From the IMG/VR virus record IMGVR_UViG_2713897073_000007: 21,533 nt of DNA; one strand, 5' to 3'. The notes beneath the pieces are model-generated. The model was given only the letters and a program-made list of their open reading frames with translations. It made no database searches and was not told the origin of the DNA. This DNA is from a virus (lineage: Duplodnaviria; Heunggongvirae; Uroviricota; Caudoviricetes). A program made the translations under genes and the position numbers. Of this stretch, positions 1-20,528 are shown piece after piece. Position 1 is the stretch's first letter; every line of letters starts with the position of its first letter.

Positions 1-996
1 TTAACGAACCAGCCAGACCAGCATCAGGATAATCGCGACTAACAGTATCCACAGCGCGGGACGCGTTGCCATATTTTGCAACGTGTCCATCATCGGTGGA
101 AAAGGATTAAGCAGCGGTTGCATAACACGCGGATCAATCCCTTTAACCCGCCGTTGATAAAGCTGATTAAGAATATCCTCGGCCTGGGCAGAAGAAAGCG
201 ATGATTGCGCAGAAAGACCATATTTTTGCTGGATATATGCCGATAACGCCGCCAGTTCACTGGCATCTAAAGGTTGTTTTAGCGTCATCTGTAGTGATTC
301 CAGCGTCGGCGTATTTTGCTGGCTTAGCGTCTGACGCGCCTGTAGCCAGGTCACCAGATGGTTAAACAGTTTCGCTGGAATTAACTCGCCATCTTTCACC
401 CCGGAAAGTTCCAGCATCGATTGCCAGATCTGTTTGCTGGGTTCCCCCGTTGCCGCCGCAAGTTTGGTCACCAGCTGTTTTAGCGCATTGTGCTCCGCCG
501 GTAATAAAGGACGGTCGGTCGCCTCGCGCTGCTGTGGTTGCGGAATAACCATCTTCCCTTCCTGCAACAGGGTGAGAATGGTTTTTAATTGCTCCGGTGA
601 GAGCTGATTCAGCGGCGTCTGACCAAAGTTATGACGGATATAATCCGTGACCGCCTGACGATTATTCCCCAGACGTAAATACTCCCCTAATTGCGCTAAA
701 AGCTGGCGGGCAGAATGGCTTTTTTGCGCGGCCAGCAGACGTTGCGCCAGATTATGCTCAGCGGCAGGGAAGTGACGCGAAAGCAGCGGTGAATCTCCCG
801 ACAGACCAATATCGTGCCTGATACCCGCCCACAGTTCTGCTCTTTGCTGTTGCGTCAGTGAGGTCACTTTCGTCATTAAGCTTTCCAGCGAAGTACGTTG
901 CTGACTGGATAAAGGCTGATTGCCCGTGCCAGACGGCAGATTATCTCCCTGACCTGGTGGTTGCCCAGGAGGAGGGCCGGAAATAGGTTGTATCAT
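1..996 (-). CDS. flk: Flk-like tail-anchored inner-membrane protein (flagellar biosynthesis regulator Flk family); probable host core gene flanking the island
   Basis: 331-aa ORF with Pro/Gln-rich N-terminus (MIQPISGPPPGQPPGQ...) and a single hydrophobic helix at the extreme C-terminus (ALWILLVAIILMLVWLV); size and topology match Flk. Identification is from memory of the family, not a search. Confidence 0.45.
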   Translation of the reverse strand: MIQPISGPPPGQPPGQGDNLPSGTGNQPLSSQQRTSLESLMTKVTSLTQQQRAELWAGIRHDIGLSGDSPLLSRHFPAAEHNLAQRLLAAQKSHSARQLLAQLGEYLRLGNNRQAVTDYIRHNFGQTPLNQLSPEQLKTILTLLQEGKMVIPQPQQREATDRPLLPAEHNALKQLVTKLAAATGEPSKQIWQSMLELSGVKDGELIPAKLFNHLVTWLQARQTLSQQNTPTLESLQMTLKQPLDASELAALSAYIQQKYGLSAQSSLSSAQAEDILNQLYQRRVKGIDPRVMQPLLNPFPPMMDTLQNMATRPALWILLVAIILMLVWLVR

Positions 997-1199
997 TACG
1001 TATCCTTATACCTGAAATCTTCGCAAGTATGCCTGGCCGCGAGATTATGGCACACTTGTCCGGTTAACTCTCGTCTCATACAGGTAACACAAACGTGAAA
1101 ATCCTTGTTGATGAAAAAGATGTTGATTTAACTTTTTGATATAAAAGGATTTGTATCGGCGCATGTCCACGCAGTGACCACATTTTCGAGTTATAGATA

Positions 1200-1231
1200 A
1201 CACAAAGCCCGTTTTCACGGGCTTTGTGTTA
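1200..1231. terminator. Perfect 13-bp inverted repeat hairpin (AACACAAAGCCCG - 6 nt loop - CGGGCTTTGTGTT) just downstream of the minus-strand accessory operon and upstream of flk
   Basis: Read directly from sequence; GC-rich centre with U-rich stem ends; lies 15 nt after the stop at 1246. No clean T-run follows, so terminator function is inferred. Confidence 0.35.
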
Positions 1232-1245
1232 TCTGTGATTGTGGC

Positions 1246-2156
1246 TTAGCCGCATGATTTATACTGTTTCCAGTTACAGGCTTCTTGAAGCGGTTTTAGC
1301 GTGGTTGACAGGCCGTTTAAATTGAAAGTTGCACTTACAGGGCTTTCATTATAAGGGGTTATTTTTGCATACATTTTGTTTGAGTTGGCTAGTTTTCTGA
1401 TGAAGTTAATGTCATTGCCTTTATAAAAAACAGCCTTTGTATCTGTAGATACTAGCCAGTTTCGCTCAACTGCTTTCTGTTTATCAAGGCGATACAGCAT
1501 GCTGGTTTGTTCAAGGCCTAAATATACATCCCAATTAAGAAATACTTCGGTTTTCTTTTCTCGGCAAGCTATAAACAGAGTAGGGGTAACCGCTTCTCCA
1601 AATGGAGTTCTTATATAATCATCACTTTCTAACGATAAAATTACATTTTTCGAATCATCAATTGGCGATGTAGTAATGGATGTGTGCCATTTTCCTGTGT
1701 CTGTGGCTTTCTCTAATTTTGATTTAGATTGCGCAACTTTTTCCTGTGGAAATGGTTTATCGTAGCAGTTTATTCTAGTTTCTTTATCGTTTTCTGCTCG
1801 GCATTTAGATATCTCAGAAAGATTTGGTTGCTGAGCCTCTGTTGTTACTAGCTGTTTCGCTTTAGATTTTGAGCTTACAGGCGGAGTAAATGTTGGAGAA
1901 AAAAACGGTCATAACAAGATAAACGTCTGTCATCATCTTTCTCATCAGGGCATTGATCTCTGCTTTCGAATTTTTCAGCAACTGTCGTTCGAGTCGGTTG
2001 TATTGACTTATCATAACAAGAAAGTCTTTCTTTATTATTTTCTATTGCTCGGCACTGGAGTGATGACTTAAAGTTATTATGCTCAGTTGCTGCGTGAGCA
2101 GGTAGCACACTAATTGATATAAATGATGCACCTATAGAAATAATCATATTTTTCAT
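1246..2156 (-). pseudogene. Secreted Cys-motif repeat protein interrupted by a frameshift at a homopolymer (ORF 1875..2156 carries the signal peptide and two C-x8-9-RLxCYD motifs; the frame open from 1908 down to 1246 carries a third motif and about 220 further codons)
   Basis: N-terminal signal peptide MKNMIISIGASFISISVLPAHA-A. Motifs CRAIENNKERLSCYD, CPDEKDDDRRLSCYD in frame A and CRAENDKETRINCYD in frame B. Frame B has no ATG start of its own before 1500 and opens immediately after a stop at 1909-1911. The A7 run at 1899-1905 (T7 on the coding strand) sits exactly where the frames switch; one extra base would fuse them into an ORF of about 300 aa. Confidence 0.55.
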
Positions 2157-2160
2157 TTTG

Positions 2161-2493
2161 TTATCCCTTTGGTTTAGTAAGAAATACTAAATTTCCGATA
2201 ATGATATTGCAAATAACCCATAAGCCTCCAATAGCAATTAAACCTAAGCCCGTACCAATAACTGTACCGGCTTTTTCGGCATCGGATGTGGCGTTGTTTA
2301 TTATTTCACCCACCTCTCTTAGCCCAACACAAATCGTGTAGATTATAAAAATATTAAATAATATGAAAAAATACTTAATGAGTTCTCCAAAAAATGAACG
2401 TTTAAGTTTTTTCAGTTGTTTGCCACAAGCAGGGCAAGACAATACTGAATCGATCACCTCTTTCTGGCATTCAGGACATTTGATTAATGCCAT
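2161..2493 (-). CDS. Zinc-ribbon membrane protein (N-terminal CPxC...CPxC ribbon followed by two predicted transmembrane helices), AT-rich accessory gene
   Basis: ORF-track ORF 2161..2538; preferred start at the internal Met of MALIKCPECQKE..., which is preceded by AGGAGG at 8-nt spacing. Motifs CPECQ and CPACGK; hydrophobic stretches FFILFNIFIIYTICVGL and LGLIAIGGLWVICNIIIGNLVFL. Ends 4 nt before the downstream gene start at 2156 (operon). Confidence 0.6.
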   Translation of the reverse strand: MALIKCPECQKEVIDSVLSCPACGKQLKKLKRSFFGELIKYFFILFNIFIIYTICVGLREVGEIINNATSDAEKAGTVIGTGLGLIAIGGLWVICNIIIGNLVFLTKPKG

Positions 2494-2640
2494 ATAATCT
2501 GCCTCCTTTGGCTCTCTACTAGCTGACGTTTGTAACAAAACATTTTGATTTTATCAGACTTTTTATTGATATGTGTCAATTGATTAGCTGGTATAGAGTG
2601 AGACAGGATGCCTTATCGACCTTACTCTGGCAACTGATTG

Positions 2641-2660
2641 ACGGGGGATTGCTCCCCCGT
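2641..2660 (-). terminator. Stem-loop ACGGGGGA-TTGC-TCCCCCGT located 10 nt 3' of the hok-like stop; probable 3' structural element or terminator of the hok-like mRNA
   Basis: 8-bp perfect inverted repeat read from sequence; position relative to the toxin ORF matches the structured 3' end known for hok mRNAs. Confidence 0.4.
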
Positions 2661-2670
2661 CGCGGTTTCC

Positions 2671-2811
2671 TTACTGCTTACACTGTAAGAACGCCGCAAA
2701 CTCCGCTCCCCAGAAACTCATCCGTATTTCACACAGCGAACCGTGCAGCATCCAGATGATGAGGATTGCCGTCACGCAGAACGTGATGGCCGTAAGCGAT
2801 TTTTGCGACAT
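2671..2811 (-). CDS. hok: Hok/Gef-family type I toxin, 46 aa (MSQKSLTAITFCVTAILIIWMLHGSLCEIRMSFWGAEFAAFLQCKQ); below the ORF-track length cutoff
   Basis: Hand translation from ATG at 2811-2809 to TAA at 2673-2671, anchored on the ORF-track frames 2729..2941 and 2571..2759. Strong SD AAGGAG 8 nt upstream. N-terminal transmembrane helix followed by the family signature SLCEIR and a C-terminal E-x-AAF-L-x-C motif, as in Hok, Gef and HokA. Confidence 0.7.
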   Translation of the reverse strand: MSQKSLTAITFCVTAILIIWMLHGSLCEIRMSFWGAEFAAFLQCKQ

Positions 2812-2941
2812 AGCACTTGCTCCTTTTCCGGAGAGGCGCTAACCTTTCACTTGTCAAGGTAATGCGGTTAGGGCCTCGGTTAAACAGATATGTTTTCCGG
2901 GGCCTTTCCACATCCGGCCTTCGGGTATTCCCTCCGACCAT
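2729..2941 (-). CDS. mok: mok-like overlapping reading frame (70 aa) that starts upstream of and overlaps the hok-like ORF in another frame
   Basis: ORF-track ORF 2729..2941. The architecture (a roughly 70-codon frame overlapping most of hok, start about 130 nt upstream of the hok ATG) matches hok/mok/sok loci. The sequence itself is low-complexity, so the call rests on architecture. Confidence 0.45.
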   Translation of the reverse strand: MVGGNTRRPDVERPRKTYLFNRGPNRITLTSERLAPLRKRSKCYVAKIAYGHHVLRDGNPHHLDAARFAV

Positions 2942-3001
2942 CAGCCGAAAGGCACCCGCACGTAATCTATCGCTTTTTTGTTACTCCGGCAATTCTGCCT
3001 G

Positions 3002-3262
3002 TTAATCCTGAGGTAAAGGCAAACTCATCTGATTGTTTCCCCTGTGTGAAGCTGGCAGCTCATGCCACGGGATACCTTCTGATGAGTGAACGCCGGAGGC
3101 GTGTTTCGATGTGAATTTATGGAAAGCTTCCAGTGTTGAGAAGCATACGCCGCATTCCAGATTGTTACACTGGTAATACTTTTGCCGCACGGTGTTTGAA
3201 TCATTTTCCGGACGACTGGTGCGGATACGGGCAGATGCGCCACAAAGCGGACAACGGAACAT
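3002..3262 (-). CDS. ogr: Ogr/Delta-family zinc-finger late-gene transcription activator
   Basis: MFRCPLCGASARIRTSR...YYQCNNLECGVCF matches the P2 Ogr pattern MFHCPLC...RTSR...HQCQNVNC as recalled; Cys4 zinc finger; sits directly downstream of gene D as in P2. At 86 aa it is longer than P2 Ogr (72 aa). Confidence 0.85.
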   Translation of the reverse strand: MFRCPLCGASARIRTSRPENDSNTVRQKYYQCNNLECGVCFSTLEAFHKFTSKHASGVHSSEGIPWHELPASHRGNNQMSLPLPQD

Positions 3263-3304
3263 AGCGACCTCCCTTAACGTGGTGCTGCCGCTATTCTAAG
3301 TTGC

Positions 3305-4414
3305 TCACTCTGTTTCCGCTATCCATTCCGGGATTTTTGCCTCAAGCTCAAGCTGCGTGGTAAAGCCGCTGTTATCAATGGTGTGCCCGGCTTTTGCAAT
3401 AATCCAGTCCTGATTATCAATCTCGCTTTTAAATCCTGTTACCGTGCCATGCATTTCGGGGTAGAGCTCTGCACGTCCACGCGCCAGCGTGATGGAGAAT
3501 GATGCGGCTCCGCGTTGTAGTTGCTGCCACTTTGCCGCCGCTGCGCGTCTTGCTGCCTGCTCGTTCTGATAAGTCTTGCGTAACACAAACACATTGCCTT
3601 CCGCGCCTTCCATATAATCACCTTCACGGCTGCTGCTTTTCTCCTTTTTGGGTTTTGGCGGTTTACGGCGTTTCACGCTGACTTTTTTCTTTTTCCCGTA
3701 ATTAAGATCAAGCCAGTAGGCGCGTACCCCCGTATACGCCTCGCGGTCAGCAATGCGGAACTGATGGCGATCGCCGCTGCTGCGTGTAATGGCGAACGAG
3801 GGCAACGGCTGGCCCTGTGCGTTCACGCCACCACCTGGCATGATGAATAACAGATTGCCGCTTTTTACCGTGGTGATTGCACCCAGCATTTCCGCCATGC
3901 GCGTAAGGAAGGACATGTCGCTTTCTTCGGTCTGGTCGGCGTGGTCGATTTCGATATCCATCAGCATTTCGCTGATTTGCGGTTTCAGACCATACCGATG
4001 AGCGATGGCGGATACCACACGCTCAACGGTCACATCATGCCAGGACACCTCACGTTTAACGTTAAATTCATCCCAAAAATCTGCGCTTCTGGCTGAAACA
4101 GTCAGCCTGTCCGGCGGTCCTTCGTGAGCGATTTCATCAACAATGTAAGTGCCTTTTTCTGTCAGCGGTTCTCCCTTCCAGCCAATGAGAACCGTCAGGC
4201 GCGCGCCCCGTGGCGGTAGCTGCAACTGACCATCCGCATCATCCAGCGTGATGGTGAGCTGGTCCGCCTCAAATCCCCGGTTGTCGGTCAGTGACAGGCT
4301 CATCAGGCGCTCTGCCACGCCTGACAGCGTTTTACCCTCCGCGAGAATATCAAAATCCGGCATTTTTACGGGGTCTGTGCCCTGACTGAGCAATTGCATG
4401 GTGGTGTCGGTCAT
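3305..4414 (-). CDS. D: P2 gpD-like tail protein (late control gene D family)
   Basis: ORF-track ORF 3305..4546. Protein has the conserved SLSLTDNRGFEADQL block, a central Lys-rich stretch (KKKKVSVKRRKPPKPKKEK) and C-terminal NSGFTTQLEL typical of gpD. Preferred start is the internal Met of MTDTTMQLLSQ (about 4414), preceded by GGGAGGGAG. Confidence 0.85.
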   Translation of the reverse strand: MTDTTMQLLSQGTDPVKMPDFDILAEGKTLSGVAERLMSLSLTDNRGFEADQLTITLDDADGQLQLPPRGARLTVLIGWKGEPLTEKGTYIVDEIAHEGPPDRLTVSARSADFWDEFNVKREVSWHDVTVERVVSAIAHRYGLKPQISEMLMDIEIDHADQTEESDMSFLTRMAEMLGAITTVKSGNLLFIMPGGGVNAQGQPLPSFAITRSSGDRHQFRIADREAYTGVRAYWLDLNYGKKKKVSVKRRKPPKPKKEKSSSREGDYMEGAEGNVFVLRKTYQNEQAARRAAAAKWQQLQRGAASFSITLARGRAELYPEMHGTVTGFKSEIDNQDWIIAKAGHTIDNSGFTTQLELEAKIPEWIAETE

Positions 4415-4571
4415 CTGCTCCCTCCCTGTGCGGCATGGTCGCATGTGCGTGCGGAGGGGGTTACTGCTTTTTGTTGTCGCCGTGGCGAGAGAACGGCGCA
4501 GGGGTGAGATTACGCGCGTGGTGGGTGATGATTGTTGCCGAATCATTTAACGGATACAAGGGGCTGAAGCT

Positions 4572-5756
4572 ATGAGTGAAACTCGTTTTCATGGTGCCCG
4601 TGTTACGGAAAATACCGACCTGGTAACAGCGATTAACGATGTTGATTCCAGCGTTATCGGTATCGTGGCAACGGCGGATGATGCGGACGCGAAGCTGTTC
4701 CCGCTGAACAAGCCCACACTGCTGACCCGCGTCAATGACGTGCTGGGAAAATGCGGGACAACGGGGACGCTTTATCGTGCGCTTAAGGCCATCGCAGACC
4801 AGGTGAGTACAAAGGTGATCGTCGTTCGCGTGGCTGAACACAAAGAAGAAGACGGAAAAACGCAGGATCAACTGGTTATCGGTGGTTCTGAATCTGACGG
4901 CAGCTATACGGGGATGTATGCGCTGCTTGTTGCAGAGCAGGATGAAAGCATCGGATACCGTCCGCGTATTCTGGCCGCGCCGGAGCTGGACACGGAGGCG
5001 GTAACAAAATCCCTGTGCGTGATTGCGGGTAAACTGCGCGCGTTTGTGTATGCCTCATGTCACGGCTGTAACACGATGGCTGAGGCGATTACCTACCGCC
5101 AGAAATTCAACGAACGTGAGGTGATGCTCTTATGGCCGGACTTCATCGCCTACAACCCGAAAAGTGGCAAAAACGAAACGTTCCCCGCGCCTGCCTATGC
5201 GTGCGGCCTTCGTGCGTACATTGACCATGAGCAGGGTTGGCACAAATCGCTGTCCAACGTTCCGGTTAAAAATGTGCTGGGGATGTCCAGGCATGTGTTC
5301 TGGTCGTTGCAGGCCGAAGACAGTGATGCCAACAGCCTCAACAACAAAGAAATCACGACCATTATTCGTCGCAACGGGTTCCGCTTCTGGGGCAACCGCA
5401 CACCGGAAACGAACGCCTACATCTTTGAGGTGTATACCCGAACCGCACAGGTGCTGGCTGATTCAATTGCGGAAGCGCAGTTTGAAACCATCGATAGTCC
5501 ACTGACGCCTGCGAACGTGAAGGATGTTATCAGTGCCATCAGGGCAAAACTGGATTCACTGGTGACTGCCGGGAAACTGATTGGGGCGTCGTGCTGGTAT
5601 GACGTGGTGGATAACAGCACCACGAATTTACGTCAGGGGCGTGTGCGTATTCGCTACAAATATACGCCCGTTCCTCCGCTGGAAGACATGGAGCTTTACC
5701 AGTCGTTTACTGATGAATTCTTTGGTCCCGCATTTGCGGTGCTGGGAGGTGCCTGA
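4572..5756 (+). CDS. FI: Contractile tail sheath protein (P2 gpFI family)
   Basis: 394 aa; N-terminal region ...ADDADAKLFPLNKPTLLT... aligns with recalled P2 FI (...ASDADAETFPLNKPVLIT...); SD AAGGGG upstream; followed immediately by the tube gene. Confidence 0.9.
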   Translation: MSETRFHGARVTENTDLVTAINDVDSSVIGIVATADDADAKLFPLNKPTLLTRVNDVLGKCGTTGTLYRALKAIADQVSTKVIVVRVAEHKEEDGKTQDQLVIGGSESDGSYTGMYALLVAEQDESIGYRPRILAAPELDTEAVTKSLCVIAGKLRAFVYASCHGCNTMAEAITYRQKFNEREVMLLWPDFIAYNPKSGKNETFPAPAYACGLRAYIDHEQGWHKSLSNVPVKNVLGMSRHVFWSLQAEDSDANSLNNKEITTIIRRNGFRFWGNRTPETNAYIFEVYTRTAQVLADSIAEAQFETIDSPLTPANVKDVISAIRAKLDSLVTAGKLIGASCWYDVVDNSTTNLRQGRVRIRYKYTPVPPLEDMELYQSFTDEFFGPAFAVLGGA

Positions 5757-6268
5757 TGGCTGTACCAAAACATCTTCGCTTTTTTACGCTGTTTGTGGAT
5801 GGTGAAAACGAAGTGGGTAAGGTGACGTCCGTCACCCTGCCTAAACTGACGCGCAAAACCGACAGCTACCGGGGTGGTGGCATGATGGGTGCGGTAAGTA
5901 TTGATCTCGGTCTGGACGACTCCGCGCTTGATGCGAGCTTTGTCATGGGGGGCGCAGTTCGTGAGCTGTTCCTTAAGTATGGCGGCACGATTGACGGCAC
6001 GCTACTGCGTTTTGCGGGTGAATACTACACCGATGCAGAAAGCGACCTGTATGAAGTCGAAATGCGCGGACGCGTGACGGAAATTGATATGGGGGAAGCC
6101 AAACAGGGCGAAGCCACATCACACACTTACGCCATTAAAAACACCTACTACAAGCTGAGTGTTAACGATCGTCCGTTGTGGGAGATTGACCTGCTGAACT
6201 TCATTTACCGGAAGGACGGCAAGGACATTGTGCCCGATCGCATCCGTTCCGCGCTTGGGCTTGGCTGA
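5756..6268 (+). CDS. FII: Tail tube protein (P2 gpFII family)
   Basis: 170 aa; start overlaps the FI stop (TGATG); position and size match FII; N-terminal pattern ...FVDGENEVGKVTSVTLPKLTRKTDSYRGGGM resembles recalled P2 FII. Confidence 0.85.
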   Translation: MAVPKHLRFFTLFVDGENEVGKVTSVTLPKLTRKTDSYRGGGMMGAVSIDLGLDDSALDASFVMGGAVRELFLKYGGTIDGTLLRFAGEYYTDAESDLYEVEMRGRVTEIDMGEAKQGEATSHTYAIKNTYYKLSVNDRPLWEIDLLNFIYRKDGKDIVPDRIRSALGLG

Positions 6269-6322
6269 TAAGTAATATGCAGGCGGCGCAGTGCGTCGCC
6301 TCTGACTGAAAGGAGTTTCCTG

Positions 6323-6688
6323 ATGAAAGAGACGAAAAACATCGATACCGAAAACACGGTAGTTGCTGACACTGTGAAAGAAACCAGTGAGCGTGGCGTA
6401 AAACTTACCCAACCAATTGAGCGAGGCGGCGAAAAAATCACGTATGTGGAGATCACCGGGGCTATTGAGCAGGCTGGATCTCTGCGAGATTTGTCGCTGT
6501 CTGATGTGCTGAATCTGAAAGCGGAATCCATGTTTACGCTGCTGTCACGAGTGACATCACCGCGACTGGATGAAGTGACGATCAAAAAAATGGCATCCCG
6601 TGACTTTATTCAGTTATGTGTGGTTGCCGTAAATTTTTTGAGCGGTGCGGACTCTGGCGGGAAGAACGAACAGGCGACGGAAGCCTGA
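6323..6688 (+). CDS. E: Tail assembly chaperone gpE (zero-frame product)
   Basis: 121-aa ORF between the tube and tape-measure genes; contains the T TTT TTG slippery heptamer in frame; synteny with P2 E. Confidence 0.8.
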   Translation: MKETKNIDTENTVVADTVKETSERGVKLTQPIERGGEKITYVEITGAIEQAGSLRDLSLSDVLNLKAESMFTLLSRVTSPRLDEVTIKKMASRDFIQLCVVAVNFLSGADSGGKNEQATEA

Positions 6689-6852
6689 TCACGGTTGTGT
6701 GCTTTGAGCACATAGAAGACTTTGTGGCAGATATTGCCGTTATTTTTAACTGGTCGCCCGCCGAAATCTTCATGATGACGCCCGGCGAAGTGGTTAGCTG
6801 GCGTGAGCGGGCGGCACTTCGCAGCGGGAATGCAGACAATGAAGACTCTTGA
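6323..6852 (+). CDS. E': gpE+E' fusion product made by programmed -1 ribosomal frameshift at 6634-6640
   Basis: ORF-track frame 6616..6852 is -1 relative to E and is closed by a TGA at 6601-6603, so it can only be entered by slippage downstream of that point. The heptamer T TTT TTG at 6634-6640 is in the correct zero-frame register. The E' frame ends by overlapping the tape-measure start. Confidence 0.7.
6634..6640 (+). other. Slippery heptamer T TTT TTG (programmed -1 frameshift site for E/E')
   Basis: Read directly; E-frame codons AAT TTT TTG (N F L), -1 frame codons TTT TTT GAG (F F E), matching both ORF-track translations (VNFLSGADS and KFFERCGLW). Confidence 0.7.
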
Positions 6853-9646
6853 TATCCGGGTCGCTTTCAGCGCCGTTGACAGGCTGACCCAGCCTGCCGA
6901 AAACGCCCGCCGCCTGATGGGGCAGTTTGGTGACTCCATCCAGCGAACGCAGGGGGCGATCAAAAATCTCGAGCGTCAGGCGCGTTCATTTGAGCGCGCC
7001 CGCGACGCTGTCAGTAAAGCGGATGCGGGTATCGTGAAAGCACGACGCCAGCTTAACGCCCTTAATCAGTTACAACGCACGGGTACAGTGCTCAGCGAAA
7101 AACAACAAAAGCTGATGCAGCAGTTAAGCACCCGGCTTGAACGCCTGAATGAATCGCGCACGCGGGAAATTCAGAAAATGCGGGAGCTTGGCGGAGAGCT
7201 GAAACGCCACGGCATTTCCCTGACAGGCAGCGATAACACCATCCAGCAGGCCATCAGACGCACCGAACAGTACAACAATCAGCTTGAACGCGAACGGCAG
7301 GCGCTTGCGCGTGTAACGCGGGCGCGTGAGCGGTATTCGCGCGCGCAGGAAACAGCGGGAAAACTGAAAACAGGTGGTGCACTGGCAATTGGTGCGGCAG
7401 CGGCGGGCGGCTATGCTGCCGGGCGTTTTTTGCAGCCTGCGATCGGGTTCGGGAAAGAGATGTCCCGCGTTCAGGCACTGACGCGAATCGACCAGAACAG
7501 CCCGCAGTTTAAGGCGCTGCGTGAGCAGGCGTTAAAACTTGGCTCTGAAACGCAGTTCACCGCAGGCGATGCCGCCAGTGGGCAGGCATTTCTGGCAATG
7601 GCTGGCTTCACACCGCAGGCCATTCAGGCTGCGCTTCCCGGCGTGCTGAGCATGGCAACGGCTGGCGGTATGGACCTTGGCGAGACGGCAGATATTGGCT
7701 CAAATATCCTGACGCAGTTCGGCCTCTCCGCTGACCAGATGGACCGGGTCGGTGACACGCTTACAGCAGTGTTTACCCGTACTAACACTGACCTTCGCGC
7801 ACTGGGCGAAACCATGAAATATGCAGGTCCGGTGGCGGGTAAGCTGGGAATATCGCTGGAGCAGGCCGCAGCGATGGCGGGCGTGCTGGCGAATATGGGT
7901 ATCAGAGGGAGTGATGCCGGGACGGCAATGCGTGCCAGCCTGGCTCGTCTGGCATCACCGCCAAAGGCGGCAGCAGAAGCGCTGAAAGAGCTGGGTGTGT
8001 CCGTCTCTGATGCGAACGGCAAAATGCGCCCGATGGAAGATGTGCTGGCCGACCTTTATAAAGCCACCCGTAAATACGGGGAAGTTGACCGGGTATCGTT
8101 CTTTAAGGACATTGCCGGGGAAGAGGCTTTCACGTCGTTTATGGCTCTCGTTGATGCGGCGGGTGACGGCTCCCTGCCCAAACTGAGAAAAGAACTTGAG
8201 GGCGCACGCGGTGAGGCTGAACGCACGGCAAAGGTTATGGCCAATAACCTTGATGGCGACCTGAAATCACTCGGCAGTGCATGGGAAGGGCTGCGTATCC
8301 GCATTGCAGATCTGATTGATGGTCCGCTGCGTTCTGTCACGCAGTGGCTCACGCGGGTGGTCTCAAAGGTGACGGCGCTGGCACAGGCCCATCCGGTACT
8401 GACGCGCCAGTTACTGATAGCAGGCGGTGCGCTGCTGGCAATGACTGCAACGGTTGGCTCGTTGTCGCTGGTTATTGGAGTGCTTCACGGGAAGCTGGCC
8501 ACGTTGCGTCTTGGTTTTTCTCTCCTGACCGGATCAATGAATGCTGTCAGGCTCCTGCCAGCACTATGGGGAATGGTGACGGGTTCCGTTTCGTTACTGG
8601 GGGGCGCTATCGGGGCGCTGTTCAGCCCGGTCGGATTGATTGCTGCTGCGTTTGTGGCTGCGGCAGTTCTCATCTGGAAATACTGGGAACCCATCAAGGC
8701 GTTTTATGCCGGGGTGTTCAGCGGGATTATGGAGCGGCTGGCCCCGTTACGCGAAACCTTTGAACGGTTTGGTCCTGTTTTTGACGCAATCGGAAGCGGG
8801 ATAAGTCAGGTGTTTAACTGGTTTAAATCGTTGCTGTCACCGATGGAGTCCAGCAAGGAAACGCTGGATAAATGTACCAGTGCTGGCGAGATATTCGGTA
8901 ACGTTCTTGGCGGTGCGTTACAGCTTGTTCTGACGCCCGCAAAAATGTTGCTGGATACGCTGGCGTGGATACTTGAAAAACTCGGTGTGCTTCCGGATGA
9001 AGCGGAAAGGGCGAGAAAGAAAATCGAAGACGCACAGCGTGCGGCCATTCTTCAGGACAAGGTTGCTCTGTTTCAGGGAGACATTGCGAAAATCAATCCG
9101 CCGAAGTCTGCGGAAAATGGCAATGGCACCGGAGGTGATAAACCCAAAGACAATAAACCGCTCACAGACAGCAATACCGGTACGCTACGCAGACTCAGCA
9201 AAATTGCTGATAACACAGGTAAGCTGGTTGATGAGACGAAAAAACGTATTGGCCCCGGCGATATTGTCTTTAAGAACCTGCCCCGCGCACTTGCCGTTCG
9301 TGGGGAGTGGCAGGAGCGGAAGATTGTGCAGGTCAGTAAGCCTGCCCCCGCAATTAATATCACACCCGTGGTCCCGGCTCCGCTGCCTCCGGCGCTGGTC
9401 CCTGTTGTTGCGGCCAGCTCCCGCCCGGTGGCGGAGGCCATACGATCTCCAGTGGCATCAGTTCCTGTAACTTCCCGTAACCGGGAGCCTGTTGCCTCCG
9501 GATTTGGTGGTGAAATTCATGTTCATCTGCATAACGTTGTTACGCAGAATCCCCGCGAACTGGCGAAACTGGTCGGTGAAATGGTCAGGGCAGAAATGGA
9601 ACGGCGCGCCCGTGCCGGGCGTGGCAGTTTTTACGATAAAGATTGA
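6803..9646 (+). CDS. T: Tail tape measure protein (P2 gpT family)
   Basis: 947-aa ORF; long N-terminal coiled-coil-like region, central hydrophobic segments (LLIAGGALLAMTATVGSLSLVIGVL...), Pro/Ala-rich C-terminus; located between E/E' and U. True start may be the in-frame ATG at 6830 or 6839, overlapping the E' stop. Confidence 0.9.
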   Translation: MSGRHFAAGMQTMKTLDIRVAFSAVDRLTQPAENARRLMGQFGDSIQRTQGAIKNLERQARSFERARDAVSKADAGIVKARRQLNALNQLQRTGTVLSEKQQKLMQQLSTRLERLNESRTREIQKMRELGGELKRHGISLTGSDNTIQQAIRRTEQYNNQLERERQALARVTRARERYSRAQETAGKLKTGGALAIGAAAAGGYAAGRFLQPAIGFGKEMSRVQALTRIDQNSPQFKALREQALKLGSETQFTAGDAASGQAFLAMAGFTPQAIQAALPGVLSMATAGGMDLGETADIGSNILTQFGLSADQMDRVGDTLTAVFTRTNTDLRALGETMKYAGPVAGKLGISLEQAAAMAGVLANMGIRGSDAGTAMRASLARLASPPKAAAEALKELGVSVSDANGKMRPMEDVLADLYKATRKYGEVDRVSFFKDIAGEEAFTSFMALVDAAGDGSLPKLRKELEGARGEAERTAKVMANNLDGDLKSLGSAWEGLRIRIADLIDGPLRSVTQWLTRVVSKVTALAQAHPVLTRQLLIAGGALLAMTATVGSLSLVIGVLHGKLATLRLGFSLLTGSMNAVRLLPALWGMVTGSVSLLGGAIGALFSPVGLIAAAFVAAAVLIWKYWEPIKAFYAGVFSGIMERLAPLRETFERFGPVFDAIGSGISQVFNWFKSLLSPMESSKETLDKCTSAGEIFGNVLGGALQLVLTPAKMLLDTLAWILEKLGVLPDEAERARKKIEDAQRAAILQDKVALFQGDIAKINPPKSAENGNGTGGDKPKDNKPLTDSNTGTLRRLSKIADNTGKLVDETKKRIGPGDIVFKNLPRALAVRGEWQERKIVQVSKPAPAINITPVVPAPLPPALVPVVAASSRPVAEAIRSPVASVPVTSRNREPVASGFGGEIHVHLHNVVTQNPRELAKLVGEMVRAEMERRARAGRGSFYDKD

Positions 9647-9652
9647 GGAGTC

Positions 9653-10147
9653 ATGGCCATGATGATGATCTACGGCATGTTTGTTTTTGAGCTGCGCACG
9701 CTGCCGCATCAGCAGTTACAGCAAAACAAAAGCTGGCGGCATGTGAAAAATGAACGCGTTAACCGTTCAGCAAGCTGGCAGTATATCGGTGCAGGTGATG
9801 ATCGCATCGTTCTTTCTGGTGTGCTTTATCCTGAAATTACAGGTGGCGAAGTGTCGCTGTCGCTGCTGACCACGCAGGCGTATACAGGACGACCCTGGCC
9901 TTTGATTGATGGCGTCGGGCAGATTTACGGCATGTATGTCCTGACCGGAACGAACACGACCCGTTCCGAGTTTGATCGCTACGGTAAGGCGAAAAAGATA
10001 GAATTTTCACTGACCCTTGAACGCTGTGATGAGGATTTGCGGGAGCGCCTGCAATCCTCATCGTTCAGCGATATGCTGTCCGGCTTCAAAGATAAAGTGA
10101 CATCATCCCTTAACAGCGCGGCCAGTTCAGTTAAAGGGCTGTTCTGA
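9653..10147 (+). CDS. U: Tail protein gpU
   Basis: 164 aa directly after T; N-terminal FVFELRTLPHQQLQQNKSWRH and LSGVLYPEITGG resemble recalled P2 U. Confidence 0.8.
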   Translation: MAMMMIYGMFVFELRTLPHQQLQQNKSWRHVKNERVNRSASWQYIGAGDDRIVLSGVLYPEITGGEVSLSLLTTQAYTGRPWPLIDGVGQIYGMYVLTGTNTTRSEFDRYGKAKKIEFSLTLERCDEDLRERLQSSSFSDMLSGFKDKVTSSLNSAASSVKGLF

Positions 10148-10159
10148 TTTAATGCTGGC

Positions 10160-10191
10160 CACTCATACCTGGTAATAAGTGGCCAGTCTTA
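10160..10191. repeat. 9-bp inverted repeat CTGGCCACT - 14 nt - AGTGGCCAG immediately 3' of U, at the transition from GC-normal phage DNA to AT-rich cargo
   Basis: Read from sequence; could be a terminator for the late tail operon or a remnant of a recombination site. Confidence 0.3.
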
Positions 10192-10309
10192 ACACTCACC
10201 ATTTGATTGCACCCGCGTTAACGATTTGTTACTGGGTATCAGACATGCTGGATAGCCAGTAGAAACATACCATTAAAATTATTACAATAATTGGTCACAT
10301 GATTATCTT

Positions 10310-10795
10310 ATGCTGAATAATAGAGATATGAATATTAATGAACTTAAAGACTGTATTCACTATGAAGTAATCGGTAGCGAGCGTCCTTTCTCCTGGCGAA
10401 AGGCAATTGTTCGCGCAATAAAACATAGAAGACTTCGTTATTTATTTTGGTGGCGCATAGCCAAATACCTTTTTGATAAAGGCGGATACTGCCGGAAGAT
10501 TGCGGGGAAAATAGAACGTTTCATTCTTGATAAATATAATGTAACAGTCCCTTTAACTGTAAATATAGGGAAAGGCTTTGATATTTCTTATCTCAACAGT
10601 GTTGTTATCGGTCACAAAGTAACAATCGGTGAAAATTGTTCAATAAAACCGGGGGTAACTATTGGGCTACGTGGTGATTTTAATGATATGGATATTGTTA
10701 TAGGACATAATGTGACCATTGGTTGTAATGCCACCATTCTTGGTGGCAAAGTGCGTATAGGAAACAATGTCACAATAGGTGCTCATGCATTGGTA
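10310..10795 (+). pseudogene. 3'-truncated hexapeptide-repeat (left-handed beta-helix) acyltransferase, AT-rich cargo gene
   Basis: Tandem hexapeptide repeats VTIGENCSIKPGVTIG / IVIGHNVTIGCNATILGGKVRIGNNVTIGAHALV; the last 23 aa of the ORF (TTTFKNFKESLTITSFFRIVAVK) are the reverse-strand reading of the tail-fibre fragment, so the gene is cut at about 10795. Confidence 0.6.
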
Positions 10796-11290
10796 ACCAC
10801 CACCTTCAAGAACTTCAAGGAGTCCCTGACCATAACTTCCTTCTTCCGGATAGTTGCGGTCAAATGAAGCGATTGAGCCACTACTGTTTCGCCATAAACC
10901 AAGATGCTCTGCGCCTCCGAGCGTGTTCAGGTCAATGGTTGTGCTCAGGGGGCGTGTTGCAGACTGAACCTGACGCCAGTAACTCCACGGACCGTCTGAA
11001 CCATTCCATGTGCCAGAAAGGTTGCGCATATAAACATTGCCTGTTCTGGTGGTGTAACGCTGCATTCCTGCAAAATTACCGCCATTGAATACCTCCAGTA
11101 CACCGACTGCACCGTCTTCAGGGAAATTTTTAGCAGCCGTCGCGTTAGTGGATGTAGCTTTAGACCAGACGCCAAGATAAGCCTTAACGGGACCAAATGT
11201 ATTCAAGTCAGCATCAAGCGGCATTTCGCCATTGTTTTTCATAAACGTCAGGCTGGTAACGCCAACATTGTCCAGAAAAGCGCCCTTATC
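10796..11290 (-). pseudogene. Internal fragment of a phage tail fibre gene (gpH-like), truncated at both ends
   Basis: ORF-track ORF 10667..11242 with its frame open upstream to about 11290. Gly/Asn/Thr/Ser-rich fibre-like sequence (GVLEVFNGGNFAGMQRYTTRTGNVYMRNLSGTWNGSDGPWSYW...GQGLLEVLEGGGY). The final 40 aa are an antisense read of the acyltransferase DNA. Family assignment is by composition and synteny only. Confidence 0.45.
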
Positions 11291-11835
11291 TCCACGCGTT
11301 GCACACCGTGCACATGCAGTGCGGCAGCAATGGCGGACAACGCCACGTCCTGACCGATAAGCCCCTGCTCAGCCAGCCACTTCCTGAACGACGATTCAGC
11401 CGCAGCCAGAATAGGTTCGGATTCCGGGCCGGGATAAAAGTACAGTTTTGCATTCAGCCGCCATGTCACGATTCTGGCGCTCTGTACGGTCAGGCGGTCG
11501 GCCACCGGGCGGGTATCCTCTGCATTCAGAACGGCACGAACGGTATTAAGCAACGCCTCCGTTGCTGTGCCGTCGCCTTCAGTGGACAGGATGGAAACCG
11601 TCACACAGGCCGGAGACGGGCTGATGGCCCGCGCATCACGCACCAGACCGCTGGCGCTGCGTGCAAAATACTCGTATGCACCTGACGGGCCAGCAACACT
11701 CAGGCCGTCGTACGCCCGCTGCGCCCGCAGTCTCAGCGAGGTGTCGCTCTCCATCACCGCGTCGGTGGTATCCGTTGCCGGAGTGATAACCAGGCGCTTT
11801 GTGTTCATATTGCCCGCGAGGTTGTCCAGGTCTGT
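11248..11835 (-). pseudogene. J: Baseplate protein gpJ fragment lacking the N-terminal third and probably the C-terminal end
   Basis: ORF 11248..11886; the segment TKRLVITPATDTTDAVMESDTSLRLRAQRAYDGLSVAGPSGAYEY...SPSPACVTVSILS...RPVADRLTVQSA...YFYPGPESEPI...LHVHGVQRVEI matches recalled P2 J residues from about 100 to 270. The first 17 codons of the ORF are an out-of-frame read of capsid-gene DNA. Confidence 0.65.
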
Positions 11836-12463
11836 CATCCAGCAGGGATGAGCGCGCGTCCTGTACCAGTGCATCAGCGTTCGCATACTTACCCGCGTGC
11901 GCCACTGTGTTGTCCATGTTGCGGGAAGTCAGCGTCACGTCATTCATTACGCGTTCACTGGCATCGGTTCTGATGTGCTCCAGCCAGCCCACGTTAACGT
12001 CCTGAAGCAGCTTGTTGGTGCTGAAATTGGATTTTTCCGCGTGTGATGTGCCGTTAAAGCCGATCATGATGCGGTCAAGCGCCACCTGCCGGGCAATCTG
12101 TGTGCTGATGCGCGACTGAAAATCGCTGTGAGCCGCCCAGGCATCAAGCTTCGGGTATGAAATAAACGTGTCGTAGTTCACCTGTTCACACTGGTACTGA
12201 CGAGCCTTCATATCGACAGCGTTAATCGGATTACGGCGATCTGTGCCGTCATAACTGGTATTCGTGCGCGCAATCGGCCCGGTGGTGTCCAGGAGAACTT
12301 TTTCGCCTTTCTGGTCAGTTACACCGATTACATTAATTCTTTTCGTAAATTCGGTACTTTCCTTTGAAGCGTTTTCAAAACGCTGTTGTACCGATGGATT
12401 GACGGTAAATCGCGATACCAGCGCAGAAACCGGGATATTGTTAAGCGACGCCTGCTGCGTCAT
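11836..12463 (-). pseudogene. N: Major capsid protein gpN fragment (N-terminal about 210 aa)
   Basis: ORF 11636..12463; FTVNPSVQQ...RINVIGVTDQKGEKV...YQCEQVNYDTFISYPKLDAWA...IMIGFNG...LLQDVNVGWLEHIR...ADALVQDA matches recalled P2 N N-terminal region. Homology stops near 11836, after which the frame reads J-fragment DNA. Confidence 0.65.
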
Positions 12464-12508
12464 GTAGCAGCCCAGCTTGTTACGGGCATTAATTACTCAG
12501 GGGGAGCA

Positions 12509-15717: not shown

Positions 15718-15896
15718 GGTGTGGCCTCTTTGGTTGTAAGTTTTGAAAACTCACCATCCAGAGCTGCGAAACTGTGGGTGGCGAGACGTACGGGGTTCGC
15801 AGTACCGGCAACCAAAGAACCCGGCCCGACCGAAGTCGGCCCCGTACGCCCCGCCATAATTCTGACGCGAAAAAAACGTGGCAATACAGTACGCAC

Positions 15897-15917
15897 AAAA
15901 AAACCGCTGGCGCGGTT
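15897..15917 (-). terminator. Hairpin ACCGC-NNNN-GCGGT followed by a T7 run on the minus strand
   Basis: Read from sequence (plus strand shows A7 then ACCGCTGGCGCGGTT); lies in the 367-bp non-coding gap between the SPFH module and the 76-aa gene. Confidence 0.4.
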
Positions 15918-16053
15918 GTGCGCTTTGGTTGTCAGCAGGCTGCGAAACCCGGCACCCGTTTTATGAGGTGCAGCGAAAATGTAACCTGACTGATTGCGGC
16001 ATGGCAAGCGGTTTTTTTGTGAGAACGGCATACTAAAAAATCCTGATACTGCT

Positions 16054-16084: not shown

Positions 16085-16915
16085 TTACTTCACGGGAACG
16101 AACGGAACAGCGGTGTTACTGGTCATGTATTGCGGCAGCGTGCCGTTCCATTTGTTGATTGCTTCCAGCTCCATAACGCCGGGATTCTGGCGCAGAGCTT
16201 CGCCGCGTAAACGAATGGCGTCGGCTTCAGCCTGGGCTTTTGTGCGAATGGCATCGGCCTGTCCGGCAGCTTCTGCGCGCAACATGTTGGCTTCTGCTTC
16301 GCGTTGCTTGACTTCCTGTTCGCGTTGCAGGGTTTTCTGGTTTGCCGTGACTTTGGCGTTAATGCTGTCGATAACGGTTGGCGGATATTCCGGTTTACCG
16401 ACATAAGAGAGGCTCATGACCTGAATACCGATGGGGGTCATCTCTTCCTGAATATCTTTAAGTGCTGAATCCAGCAGTTCAGACTTACCACCGTCGATAA
16501 ACTTATCGGTGGTCATTTTGCTGGCCAGTCGGTTGAGTGCATCGGCGATCTTCTGGCGCAGGTCAGTGTCGGTAATGTCGTCCACGCCTTTGCGGTAGGT
16601 CTGAAACACCGTGGTAACTTTGGATGGATCAACTTTGTAGGCCACGCCGATGTGATAGCCGATGGTTGTGCCGTCACTCATCTGGAAGTTGAACGGCTCA
16701 TCGTAACTCTTCATTTGTTTGAAGGTCGGGAAGATGTAAACCTCTGTATTCCAGCCTGTCCAGTAGCGGCCAACGCCAACCACTTCACCGACGCCTTTGT
16801 CGTCGCCCAGTTTGTTGACTTTGATGCCCACATTACCTGGCTCAACGCGATCGCAACCAACCAGCAGGATGGCGGCAAAAAGCGGGAGAATCTGAAAGAG
16901 TCTGAATTTCTTCAT
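16085..16915 (-). CDS. SPFH/band-7 (stomatin-prohibitin-like) domain lipoprotein
   Basis: 276 aa; signal peptide with lipobox (LLVGC); central band-7-like region; C-terminal Ala/Glu/Gln-rich coiled coil (QREQEVKQREAEANMLRAEAAGQADAIRTKAQAEADAIRLRGEALRQN). Start overlaps the upstream gene stop (ATGA). Confidence 0.75.
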   Translation of the reverse strand: MKKFRLFQILPLFAAILLVGCDRVEPGNVGIKVNKLGDDKGVGEVVGVGRYWTGWNTEVYIFPTFKQMKSYDEPFNFQMSDGTTIGYHIGVAYKVDPSKVTTVFQTYRKGVDDITDTDLRQKIADALNRLASKMTTDKFIDGGKSELLDSALKDIQEEMTPIGIQVMSLSYVGKPEYPPTVIDSINAKVTANQKTLQREQEVKQREAEANMLRAEAAGQADAIRTKAQAEADAIRLRGEALRQNPGVMELEAINKWNGTLPQYMTSNTAVPFVPVK

Positions 16916-20432: not shown

Positions 20433-20528
20433 GGCCAGAAAACTGGTTAGACCTGCTTTTTGTCTGGTCTGATTATTGCTGGAAAGAGGCTGGAGAAATT
20501 GTAGAGCGGTTCATTGGAGGGCTTCGTA

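Follow-up and report, generated by a model that had tools for sequence, protein, structure and literature searches.

The locus described here raises the question of why, in a P2-like prophage, the tail genes FI to U are carried on one strand while D and ogr lie on the other, and whether this divergence arose within the prophage itself or belongs to its lineage. In P2 the F operon (FI FII E E' T U D, in P2 as in 186) ends with gene D, which abuts U. The window, by which we mean the whole analysed stretch of 21,533 nucleotides (IMG/VR record IMGVR_UViG_2713897073_000007), carries the genes of this operon and ogr with 31–48% protein identity (E, T, ogr, FII, FI, U and D), yet here D and FI diverge, and D is preceded by a leader and a Shine-Dalgarno sequence of its own. 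A sequence-only reading had taken this for an inversion within the remnant, with breakpoints in 4415–4571 and 10148–10309, and had left as a fallback that a promoter for D might lie between D and FI. Our analysis leads to a different answer, in which we place high confidence: the window is a decayed P88-like (Xuanwuvirus-type) prophage of the P2 family inserted between flk and pdxB, its opposite orientation is the standard plan of a large Enterobacterales clade that goes back to one ancient in-place inversion, and the activator dyad of the late promoter pF would now work in two directions.

Homologues of the P2 late genes (P, N, J, FI, FII, E, T, U and D) and of int, C, cox and A were found by tblastn with E values of 1e-9 to 1e-110, along with Pfam families, and the window is thereby a prophage of a P2-like phage (Peduoviridae). 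The one departure is the co-directional FI-U-D order of P2 and 186, which is absent from the window and which separates the P88-type from the P2-type clade. On the minus strand lies an intact ogr (3002..3262, 86 aa), encoding a zinc-finger late activator of the Ogr/Delta type (Pfam PF04606 Ogr_Delta, E=5e-14, 52 bits against a cutoff of 26); P2 Ogr matches it by tblastn at 41% identity, and identical RefSeq loci are annotated ogr/Delta-like. It is located 42 bp downstream of gene D (3305..4414, minus strand), which encodes an intact tail/baseplate hub protein of 369 aa with the Pfam Phage_GPD domain, 48% identical to P2 D over residues 15–384 (tblastn) and 96% identical to P88 D with an identical start. 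The RefSeq call for D is only 266 aa, shorter than the 369-aa reading frame of the window, and we regard it as an annotation artefact; RefSeq D calls in such prophages often lack the 5′ part of the gene.

Between the ATG of D at 4414 and that of FI at 4572 lies an intergenic region of 157 bp (4415..4571), predicted to be a two-way late promoter region, from which the block of tail genes runs on the plus strand. It comprises FI, the tail sheath (4572..5756, Pfam sheath domains, 45% identity to P2 FI by tblastn), FII, the tail tube (5756..6268, Pfam Phage_tube, E=7.5e-47), and E (6323–6688, matched by P2 E in tblastn), followed by E', predicted to be reached by a −1 frameshift at the heptamer TTTTTTG (6634–6640) and ending at 6852. 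The heptamer stands in the T_TTT_TTG register of the P2 type and is the same in P2, and Pfam Phage_P2_GpE is matched in the −1 frame. Next come the tape measure gene T (6839..9646, Pfam PhageMin_Tail and P2 T by tblastn) and the tail gene U (9659..10147, Pfam Phage_P2_GpU, E=1.5e-38), whose start was set as in identical RefSeq loci, with an alternative at 9653. Rfam and tRNA scans of 4415–10309 gave no matches.

Directly 3′ of the U stop codon lies a hairpin (inverted repeat I11, 10149..10192), where homology to P88 ends (10152), and it marks the edge of a variable cargo slot. In the window this slot is occupied by a plus-strand gene for a hexapeptide (serine-type) acetyltransferase (10328..10867; the Pfam Hexapep reading frame spans 10310–10867), whose 3′ end is replaced after 10795. 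Beyond it, on the minus strand, a baseplate remnant J' (11281..11835, P2 J by tblastn) is joined at 11835/11836 to a capsid remnant N' (11837–12484, P2 N by tblastn), the deletion between them having been mapped against the loci L001 and L168; these remnants show that the baseplate/head operon lay on the strand of D. By tblastn with P2 proteins, ogr, D, J' and N' fall on the minus strand and FI, FII, E, T and U on the plus strand, so the gene order is that of P2 except that FI to U is flipped in place. The opposite strands and the 157-bp gap seen by the sequence-only reading are confirmed by Pfam, by P2 tblastn and by the start codons, and the block is indeed inverted in place relative to P2 and 186; what did not stand is the placing of that event in this degraded prophage.

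The same layout is found in intact phages. From 2630 to 10152 the window is collinear with the inducible phage P88 in a single co-oriented piece of 7.5 kb at 96.9% identity, with the same 157-bp gap, and its other surviving parts are 89–98% identical to P88. Four members of Xuanwuvirus (Peduoviridae), namely P88, P88_4B11, PhiR44_2 and phiSM, are 95–97% identical to the window over the matching parts and carry hok, D, the 157-bp gap and FI-FII-E/E'-T-U in the same order and on the same strands. By nucleotide identity and collinearity with P88 the window belongs to this P88-like lineage, while a whole-genome identity figure would be meaningless for a prophage that retains about 20 kb of about 36 kb of phage DNA; at least 80% of the window is covered by four phage records, which represent two distinct Xuanwuvirus-type phages (P88_4B11 and PhiR44_2, duplicates counted where present). 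Compared with the P88 group, most genes for the head, lysis, baseplate and fibres are missing from the window (O, most of P, Q and part of A), and the acetyltransferase takes the place of the DNA invertase and invertible fibre segment of P88. The layout is already visible in deposited annotations, those of P88 and P88_4B11 both giving D(−)/FI(+) with a 157-bp gap, although ogr is annotated in P88_4B11 and not in the P88 record. P88 was reported to be induced and to lyse its hosts (PMC5285337) and phiSM is an active phage (PMC6456863), which means that the inverted layout works.

The D/FI junction was recovered in one piece in 13 phage records and, at about 70% identity, in Serratia phage KSP20 (AB452988), and the layout is shared by P88_4B11, PhiR44_2, Citrobacter phage phiSM and KSP20. 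It is also present in a prophage that looks complete and occupies the same flk-pdxB site, with which window positions 1–10795 are collinear at 98.4%, and about a quarter of the complete E. coli genomes (1,357 of 5,426) contain the junction. We scored as inverted those loci with V W J I H (and G where detected), then U T E FII FI on the other strand, then D and ogr. By this definition all 80 IMG/VR relatives that were fetched are inverted, as are 41 of 80 GTDB species-representative genomes across Enterobacterales, in many genera; the other 39 comprise 38 with P2 order or with U abutting D and a single locus (L143) that was unclassifiable. KSP20 and prophages of Serratia, Kosakonia, Enterobacter, Pantoea, Xenorhabdus, Photorhabdus and others have the divergent D/FI layout with a similar gap length and with a perfect TGT-N12-ACA dyad at the same position, while their D proteins are 61–80% identical to that of the window and the intergenic sequence is otherwise diverged. 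Neither the P88 and phiSM papers nor two publications of 2026, one surveying the diversity of P2-like viruses and the other dealing with P2 defence hotspots, mention the inversion, and keyword literature searches for descriptions of it returned nothing relevant.

This distribution bears directly on the idea of a recent inversion in this degraded prophage, as part of the decay that deleted its head and baseplate genes. The prophage has certainly been rearranged elsewhere, with four deletions relative to an intact relative, and its J'/N' deletion junction occurs in none of the complete E. coli genomes. Nevertheless, the stretch from ogr through D, the gap and FI to U and the acetyltransferase is collinear with an intact-looking prophage at the same site and with P88, the junction is found in 1,357 complete E. 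coli genomes and many genera, and the block has no flanking inverted repeats, which makes a recent event hardly credible. The divergent FI/D arrangement of P88, P88_4B11, PhiR44_2, phiSM and KSP20, all of them intact, inducible or plaque-forming, runs counter to breakpoints having formed in this remnant and is the very finding that the sequence-only reading had named as its own refutation. Nor is the sequence after U a novel junction, as had been supposed: passing from U to the acetyltransferase gene is native, the intact relative L168 having U followed by the same gene. That gene is likewise more than the small fragment it was taken for, since about 155 of its 181 codons match their counterparts in the intact relative and the replacement affects no more than the 3′ end, after 10795. 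Inverted repeats were not found at the proposed breakpoints either; none links 4415–4571 with 10148–10309, and in the window only chance-level pairs inside the block and the hairpin after U were detected.

It could also be imagined that FI to U is a programmed invertible segment flipped by a DNA invertase of the Gin/Cin type, such as the one encoded directly after U in P88 and P88_4B11. The chances of this appear negligible, for the other orientation was seen in none of 124 sequences of the inverted clade (80 from IMG/VR, 41 from GTDB, the window, P88 and KSP20), no inverted repeat joins one end to the other and the window has no invertase. Besides, an invertase occupies the tail-fibre cargo slot in 3 of 41 inverted-type and 3 of 39 P2-order loci, with no link to orientation, and that of P88 flanks alternative tail-fibre ends. 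The strand flip is accordingly not evidence of rearrangement, misassembly or any unusual event at this locus, and confirmation of the breakpoints by PCR or long reads is unnecessary.

As for the origin of the layout, simple neighbour-joining trees of D and FI, built without support values and rooted on phiCTX, place the inverted type in one clade (44 of 44 sequences for D and 43 of 43 for FI), and the inverted layout is most simply explained by a single old inversion. The inverted and P2-order types come out as sister clades, and the trees alone therefore give no direction of change. This agrees as well with the opposite polarity, in which the divergent layout would be ancestral and the co-directional layout of P2 and 186 derived. 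We consider that polarity unlikely. In phiCTX, the one verified outgroup on which the polarity rests, V W J I H and FI FII E T U D are all co-directional and in P2 order, and the late genes of HP1 also lie on one strand, albeit in a different order. Furthermore, in phages with P2 order U and D either abut or overlap, as they would in an undisturbed operon, and the −10 element on the D side of the gap is limited to the inverted clade.

The gap itself differs from those of P88 and P88_4B11 by 2 substitutions in 157 bp, and it measures 140–164 bp in 42 of 43 inverted-type sequences (window, P88 and KSP20 included). It contains a predicted Ogr-type activator dyad, TGT-N12-AGA (4475..4492, centre 4483.5), one mismatch away from the TGT-N12-ACA consensus of the four P2 late promoters, which are Ogr-dependent (PMC3931495). 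This dyad aligns with a perfect TGT-N12-ACA in KSP20 and most other inverted-type loci; the TGT-N12-AGA form is also found in the O/P gap of P88, and the dyads of P2 pF and pO carry one mismatch too (CCA). Its centre lies 88 bp from the FI ATG in the window and 78–89 bp (mode 82) in 41 of 43 inverted-type gaps, compared with 79–86 bp in P2-order loci and 82 in P2 pF, so that P2 has the same dyad at about the same distance upstream of FI.

On the FI side the predicted −10 hexamer of pF is GATGAT (4527..4532, plus strand), with a start predicted near 4539. An nAnnnT hexamer occurs on this side 34 nt from the dyad edge in all 43 non-redundant sequences, and A-11, A-8 and T-7 are invariant in 26 sequences differing by more than 10%. 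On the D side the predicted −10 hexamer is GACCAT (4435..4440, minus strand), with a start predicted near 4428 that would place 14 nt of leader, GGGAGGGAG included, ahead of the D ATG. Here nAnnnT is found at the same offset in 39 of 43 sequences. In the alignment of the 26 sequences, A-11 and T-7 of the hexamers are kept while the neighbouring columns vary. In P2-order loci, taken as a control, the hexamer is present on the FI side in 22 of 27 and on the opposite side in 3 of 27. Such counts overstate independence, the compared sequences being related, though the 26 used are more than 10% different from each other, with variation in the columns in between. Both hexamers and the dyad stand at the spacing expected of late promoters (−10 about 43–48 bp from the dyad centre, dyad near −55).

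A two-way arrangement of this kind has precedents. In P2 one TGT-N12-NCA-type dyad lies midway in the short divergent region between pP and pO (173 bp, against about 157 bp in the window), with −10 hexamers 34 nt from each dyad edge; the annotation gives one activator site common to both promoters, with starts mapped 55.5 bp either side of its centre and, for pO, 46 nt from the dyad edge. In phage Smp131, a single 18-nt site is likewise reported to serve PP' and PO', being read on both strands (PMC3931495). The pair in the window would differ in consisting of pF and a D promoter rather than pP and pO, its D side being predicted. From motif and spacing conservation we infer that the D/FI gap is an Ogr-type late promoter acting both ways and supplying D with a start of its own, and the fallback idea of a promoter for D in this gap thus gains support from comparative evidence. 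A scan of 2900–10900 with the sigma-70 consensus found no promoter-like site in the gap, which is consistent with an activator-dependent promoter without a −35 element.

Scanning single genomes for a dyad with two-sided −10 hexamers was tried as evidence of specificity and rejected; it recovers the D/FI and O/P gaps of P88 and pP/pO of P2, but the composite motif is not rarer than chance, with 3 two-sided hits in P88 alone against a mean of 3.5 in shuffled sequences. Two Providencia loci have a TCTC-N10-GAGA dyad instead. We also noticed that the predicted leader of D is short (14 nt) and its hexamer (GACCAT) weak, and that a conserved CG-rich box is located 20–29 nt from the dyad on the D side.

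Perhaps, then, the inversion is ancient but D is driven by an independent promoter, for instance a constitutive sigma-70 one, or by some other route, the conservation on the D side reflecting, for example, the site of another factor. The weak hexamer, the short predicted leader and the CG-rich box would suit this possibility, as would the distance from the dyad to the D ATG (55–82 bp with one outlier at 110), which varies more than that to FI. We nonetheless hold it to be rather improbable, given that the sigma-70 scan found nothing in 4415–4571 and that P2 pP has the same geometry and a similar CG-rich stretch. Moreover, the D-side hexamer keeps its exact 34-nt offset in 39 of 43 sequences despite the varying length of the D leader, which fits a spacing constrained relative to the activator site.

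Returning to one ancient inversion with a shared dyad, the flipped segment would have been about 5.7 kb long and would have taken the pF late promoter along with FI through U. One breakpoint would have fallen at the boundary of U and D, genes that touch or overlap where P2 order is kept, and the other between the pF activator site and the variable cargo slot that follows the tail-fibre genes. The flip would thereby have put the pF dyad, a TGT-N12-ACA-type target of the Ogr family, beside the start of D. This single dyad could then drive FI to U rightwards as in P2 and D leftwards through a mirror-image −10, in an arrangement that would mirror the divergent pP/pO pair of P2 with its common site about 55 bp from each start, and the D transcript would probably read on into ogr. 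We somewhat favour the fuller scenario in which the ancient inversion separated D from the rest of the F operon and the symmetric pF site was afterwards co-opted in both directions, a mirror-image −10 having been gained at exactly 34 nt from the dyad; this would have yielded a new Ogr-dependent D promoter that probably reads into ogr and so forms a short positive-feedback transcript. In the window itself, where most head and baseplate genes are deleted, no particle can be made, even though the block, the gap and ogr are intact.

A large and common clade of P2-like phages, which about a quarter of the complete E. coli genomes harbour, thus departs from the textbook map of the P2 late operons by one fixed inversion, and the two-way pF/D late promoter is a concrete and testable prediction. 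If it is true, the set of late promoters of P88-type phages differs from the textbook four of P2, and the locus would offer a clear case from nature of an operon that outlives its splitting by an inversion thanks to a palindromic activator site.

The DNA is a decayed prophage of the P2 family lying between the chromosomal genes flk (1-996) and pdxB, with the integrase gene int (20514-21533, plus strand) on the pdxB side. Using Pfam and tblastn with P2 proteins, ogr (3002-3262) and D (3305-4414) were mapped on the minus strand and FI (4572-5756), FII (5756-6268), E (6323-6688, with E' through a -1 shift at TTTTTTG, 6634), T (6839-9646) and U (9659-10147) on the plus strand, where a hexapeptide acetyltransferase gene (about 10328-10867; Pfam) follows. 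J' (11281-11835) and N' (11837-12484), found by tblastn with P2 proteins on the minus strand, are late-gene remnants together with one of H; the same mapping placed P' and C on the plus strand, like int, and A' and cox on the minus strand. Pfam, tblastn and the sequence thereby confirm that FI-U runs opposite to D across a 157-bp gap (4415-4571). Read along the minus strand, the prophage keeps P2 prophage order, the sole exception being FI-U, flipped in place.

The sequence-only reading took this for an inversion arisen in this remnant, an interpretation that the comparisons refute: P88, other phages and an intact prophage share the layout, and the divergent FI/D arrangement in related intact phages makes it a lineage feature. 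Positions 2630-10152 match the inducible phage P88 in a single co-oriented alignment (96.9% identity), and in the annotations of P88 and P88_4B11 D and FI-U occupy opposite strands, D and FI standing 157 bp apart with only 2 substitutions in this gap relative to the window. An 801-bp probe spanning D/FI, searched in phage records and complete E. coli genomes, was unbroken in 13 phage records, including P88, P88_4B11, 500465-2, 520873, 503458, PhiR44_2, phiSM and Chuche, and in 1,357 of 5,426 genomes. Serratia phage KSP20 matched it at ~70% identity, and in its record a gpD-like and a gpFI-like gene are annotated as divergent. At the flk-pdxB site of strain RIVM_C037166, a complete-looking prophage reads ogr and D, then FI to U and the acetyltransferase gene, then G H I J W V S R ... 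N O, and finally P Q; positions 1-10795 are collinear with it (98.4%), hence both junctions of the FI-U block are native. Inverted repeats joining the block ends, looked for at the two presumed breakpoints, were not found in the window. Since P88 is induced and lyses its hosts (PMC5285337) and phiSM is an active phage (PMC6456863), the layout is functional.

Scanning one genome per species with a D-protein alignment gave 80 loci, which split cleanly when sorted by local tblastn with window and P2 proteins. The inverted type (41/80) reads V W J I H, and G in loci where it was detected, followed on the opposite strand by U T E FII FI and after these by D ogr, and was found, among others, in Salmonella, Edwardsiella, Erwinia, Enterobacter, Mixta, Pantoea, Kosakonia, Citrobacter, Brenneria, Serratia, Klebsiella, Xenorhabdus, Photorhabdus, Providencia, Morganella, Hafnia, Yersinia and Pectobacterium. 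Of the 39 other loci, 38 show P2 order or have U directly adjoining D, L143 being unclassifiable; the 80 relatives of the window's D in IMG/VR were without exception inverted. Neighbour-joining trees of D and of FI, with Pseudomonas phage phiCTX (P2 order) as the outgroup, place the inverted type in one clade (44/44 and 43/43), for which the simplest history would be a single ancient inversion on its stem branch. The tail-fibre cargo slot holds a DNA invertase in 3/41 loci of the inverted type and in 3/39 of P2 order, so the invertase is unrelated to block orientation.

The genes U and D touch or overlap in P2-order loci, and the variable cargo slot of P2 (Z/fun) separates G from the pF promoter. 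In the inverted clade this slot separates G from the 3' end of U (gaps of 95-3,830 bp) and the pF region adjoins D; from these positions, the flipped segment comprises the pF activator site and FI FII E E' T U. The post-U slot (10153-11285) carries the acetyltransferase gene in the window and in the RIVM_C037166 prophage, and a DNA invertase with an invertible fibre segment in P88. The last ~25 codons of the acetyltransferase gene are replaced after 10795, and 10796-11285 is a tail-fibre remnant of an allele differing from that of the intact relative.

Ogr dependence and a TGT-N12-ACA dyad characterise the late promoters of P2 (PMC3931495); the P2 record gives the divergent pP and pO a single activator site in common, with one mapped start on each side of it, 55.5 bp from the dyad centre. 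The gap holds TGT-N12-AGA at 4475-4492, a one-mismatch match that is not significant taken alone, and a whole-genome scan with a loose motif did no better than shuffled sequence. The dyad recurs, mostly perfect, in 41/43 inverted-type gaps, its centre 78-89 bp (mode 82) from the FI ATG, the same as the pF dyad-FI distance in P2-order loci (79-86 bp, 82 in P2). When the 43 gaps were anchored on the dyad, an nAnnnT hexamer began exactly 34 nt from its edge on the FI side in all 43 and on the D side in 39, with almost none at neighbouring offsets; among 26 sequences differing by >10%, the A at -11 and the T at -7 are conserved columns with variable ones between them. P2 pO, pP and pF have hexamers at this same offset, with mapped starts 46-49 nt from the dyad edge, and the P88 O/P gap (154 bp) shows the same TGT-N12-AGA form with hexamers on both sides. 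Of the P2-order loci used as a control, 22/27 had the hexamer on the FI side and only 3/27 had one on the opposite side, so that the D-side element (39/43) is specific to the inverted clade.

The D/FI gap is therefore read, most likely, as a predicted two-way Ogr-type late promoter. The predicted pF -10 hexamer, GATGAT (4527-4532, plus strand), would start transcription near 4539, and that of D, GACCAT (4435-4440, minus strand), near 4428, leaving a predicted 14-nt leader containing GGGAGGGAG. The sequence-only reading held that D would have lost its operon promoter unless one lay in the gap; the predicted two-way promoter would be such a one. Throughout the inverted clade (L085-L126), a CG-rich box (typically CGCGCGCG; 4443-4456) is found on the D side of the dyad, 20-29 nt away; the O/P gap of P88 has it on its P side, a stretch of P2 pP (3033-3046) is similar, and the box may be a mark of the "leftward" partner in two-way late promoters. 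Two Providencia loci (L107, L116) have TCTC-N10-GAGA in place of the dyad and -10 hexamers still 34 nt away on each side, a pattern suggesting that the DNA specificity of their activator has changed. A sigma-70-like match (GTAACA-18-GATAAT; 3413-3442, minus strand), which falls within the 3' end of D ~150 bp upstream of ogr, could be, as a consensus match only, an independent ogr promoter as in P2.

This copy retains ogr, D, the D/FI gap and the FI-U block intact. Missing from it, relative to the intact prophage, are fibre and baseplate genes (most of H, I, part of J, W, V), lysis and head genes, O, part of P, Q and part of A. RefSeq calls D at only 266 aa in a relative locus (L001, 9305-10105) and in the RIVM_C037166 prophage (L168, 3805-4605), with an opposite-strand pseudo "hypothetical protein", and this shortening creates an apparent gap of ~470 bp ahead of FI; homology to P88 D and P2 D supports a 369-aa D starting at 4414. 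At the junction 11835/11836 the remnants J' (baseplate) and N' (capsid) are fused, which corresponds to a 5,555-bp deletion that alone separates the window from E. coli loci such as that of strain F5656C1. As this junction was found in 0/5,426 complete E. coli genomes, several of which are otherwise 100% identical to the window, the source genome is a further-decayed variant outside that collection.

Low-GC (34-40%) cargo at 1000-2820, between flk and ogr, comprises a TagO-like gene, a small hypothetical gene, a zinc-ribbon gene and a Hok/Gef toxin gene (2671-2811, minus strand). In the early region, Rfam detected a C4 antisense RNA (87 bits) adjoining isrK (66 bits) at 15774-15971 (minus strand), a P1/P7-type antisense immunity module within a P2-like prophage, whose relatives have an adjoining "derepression protein" gene. 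An SPFH-domain gene (16085-16915, minus strand), named "serine protease" in some records, has ~93% nucleotide identity to many Stx-converting lambdoid phages, which points to cargo exchanged between unrelated phage families.

The prophage is a deleted member of the P88-like lineage. Its layout was already known, being visible in public annotations since KSP20 and P88, and would not surprise a specialist; it is not discussed in the P88 and phiSM papers, in a survey of P2-like virus diversity or in a paper on P2 defence hotspots. The analysis of its single origin and the predicted two-way promoter add modestly to this known layout.
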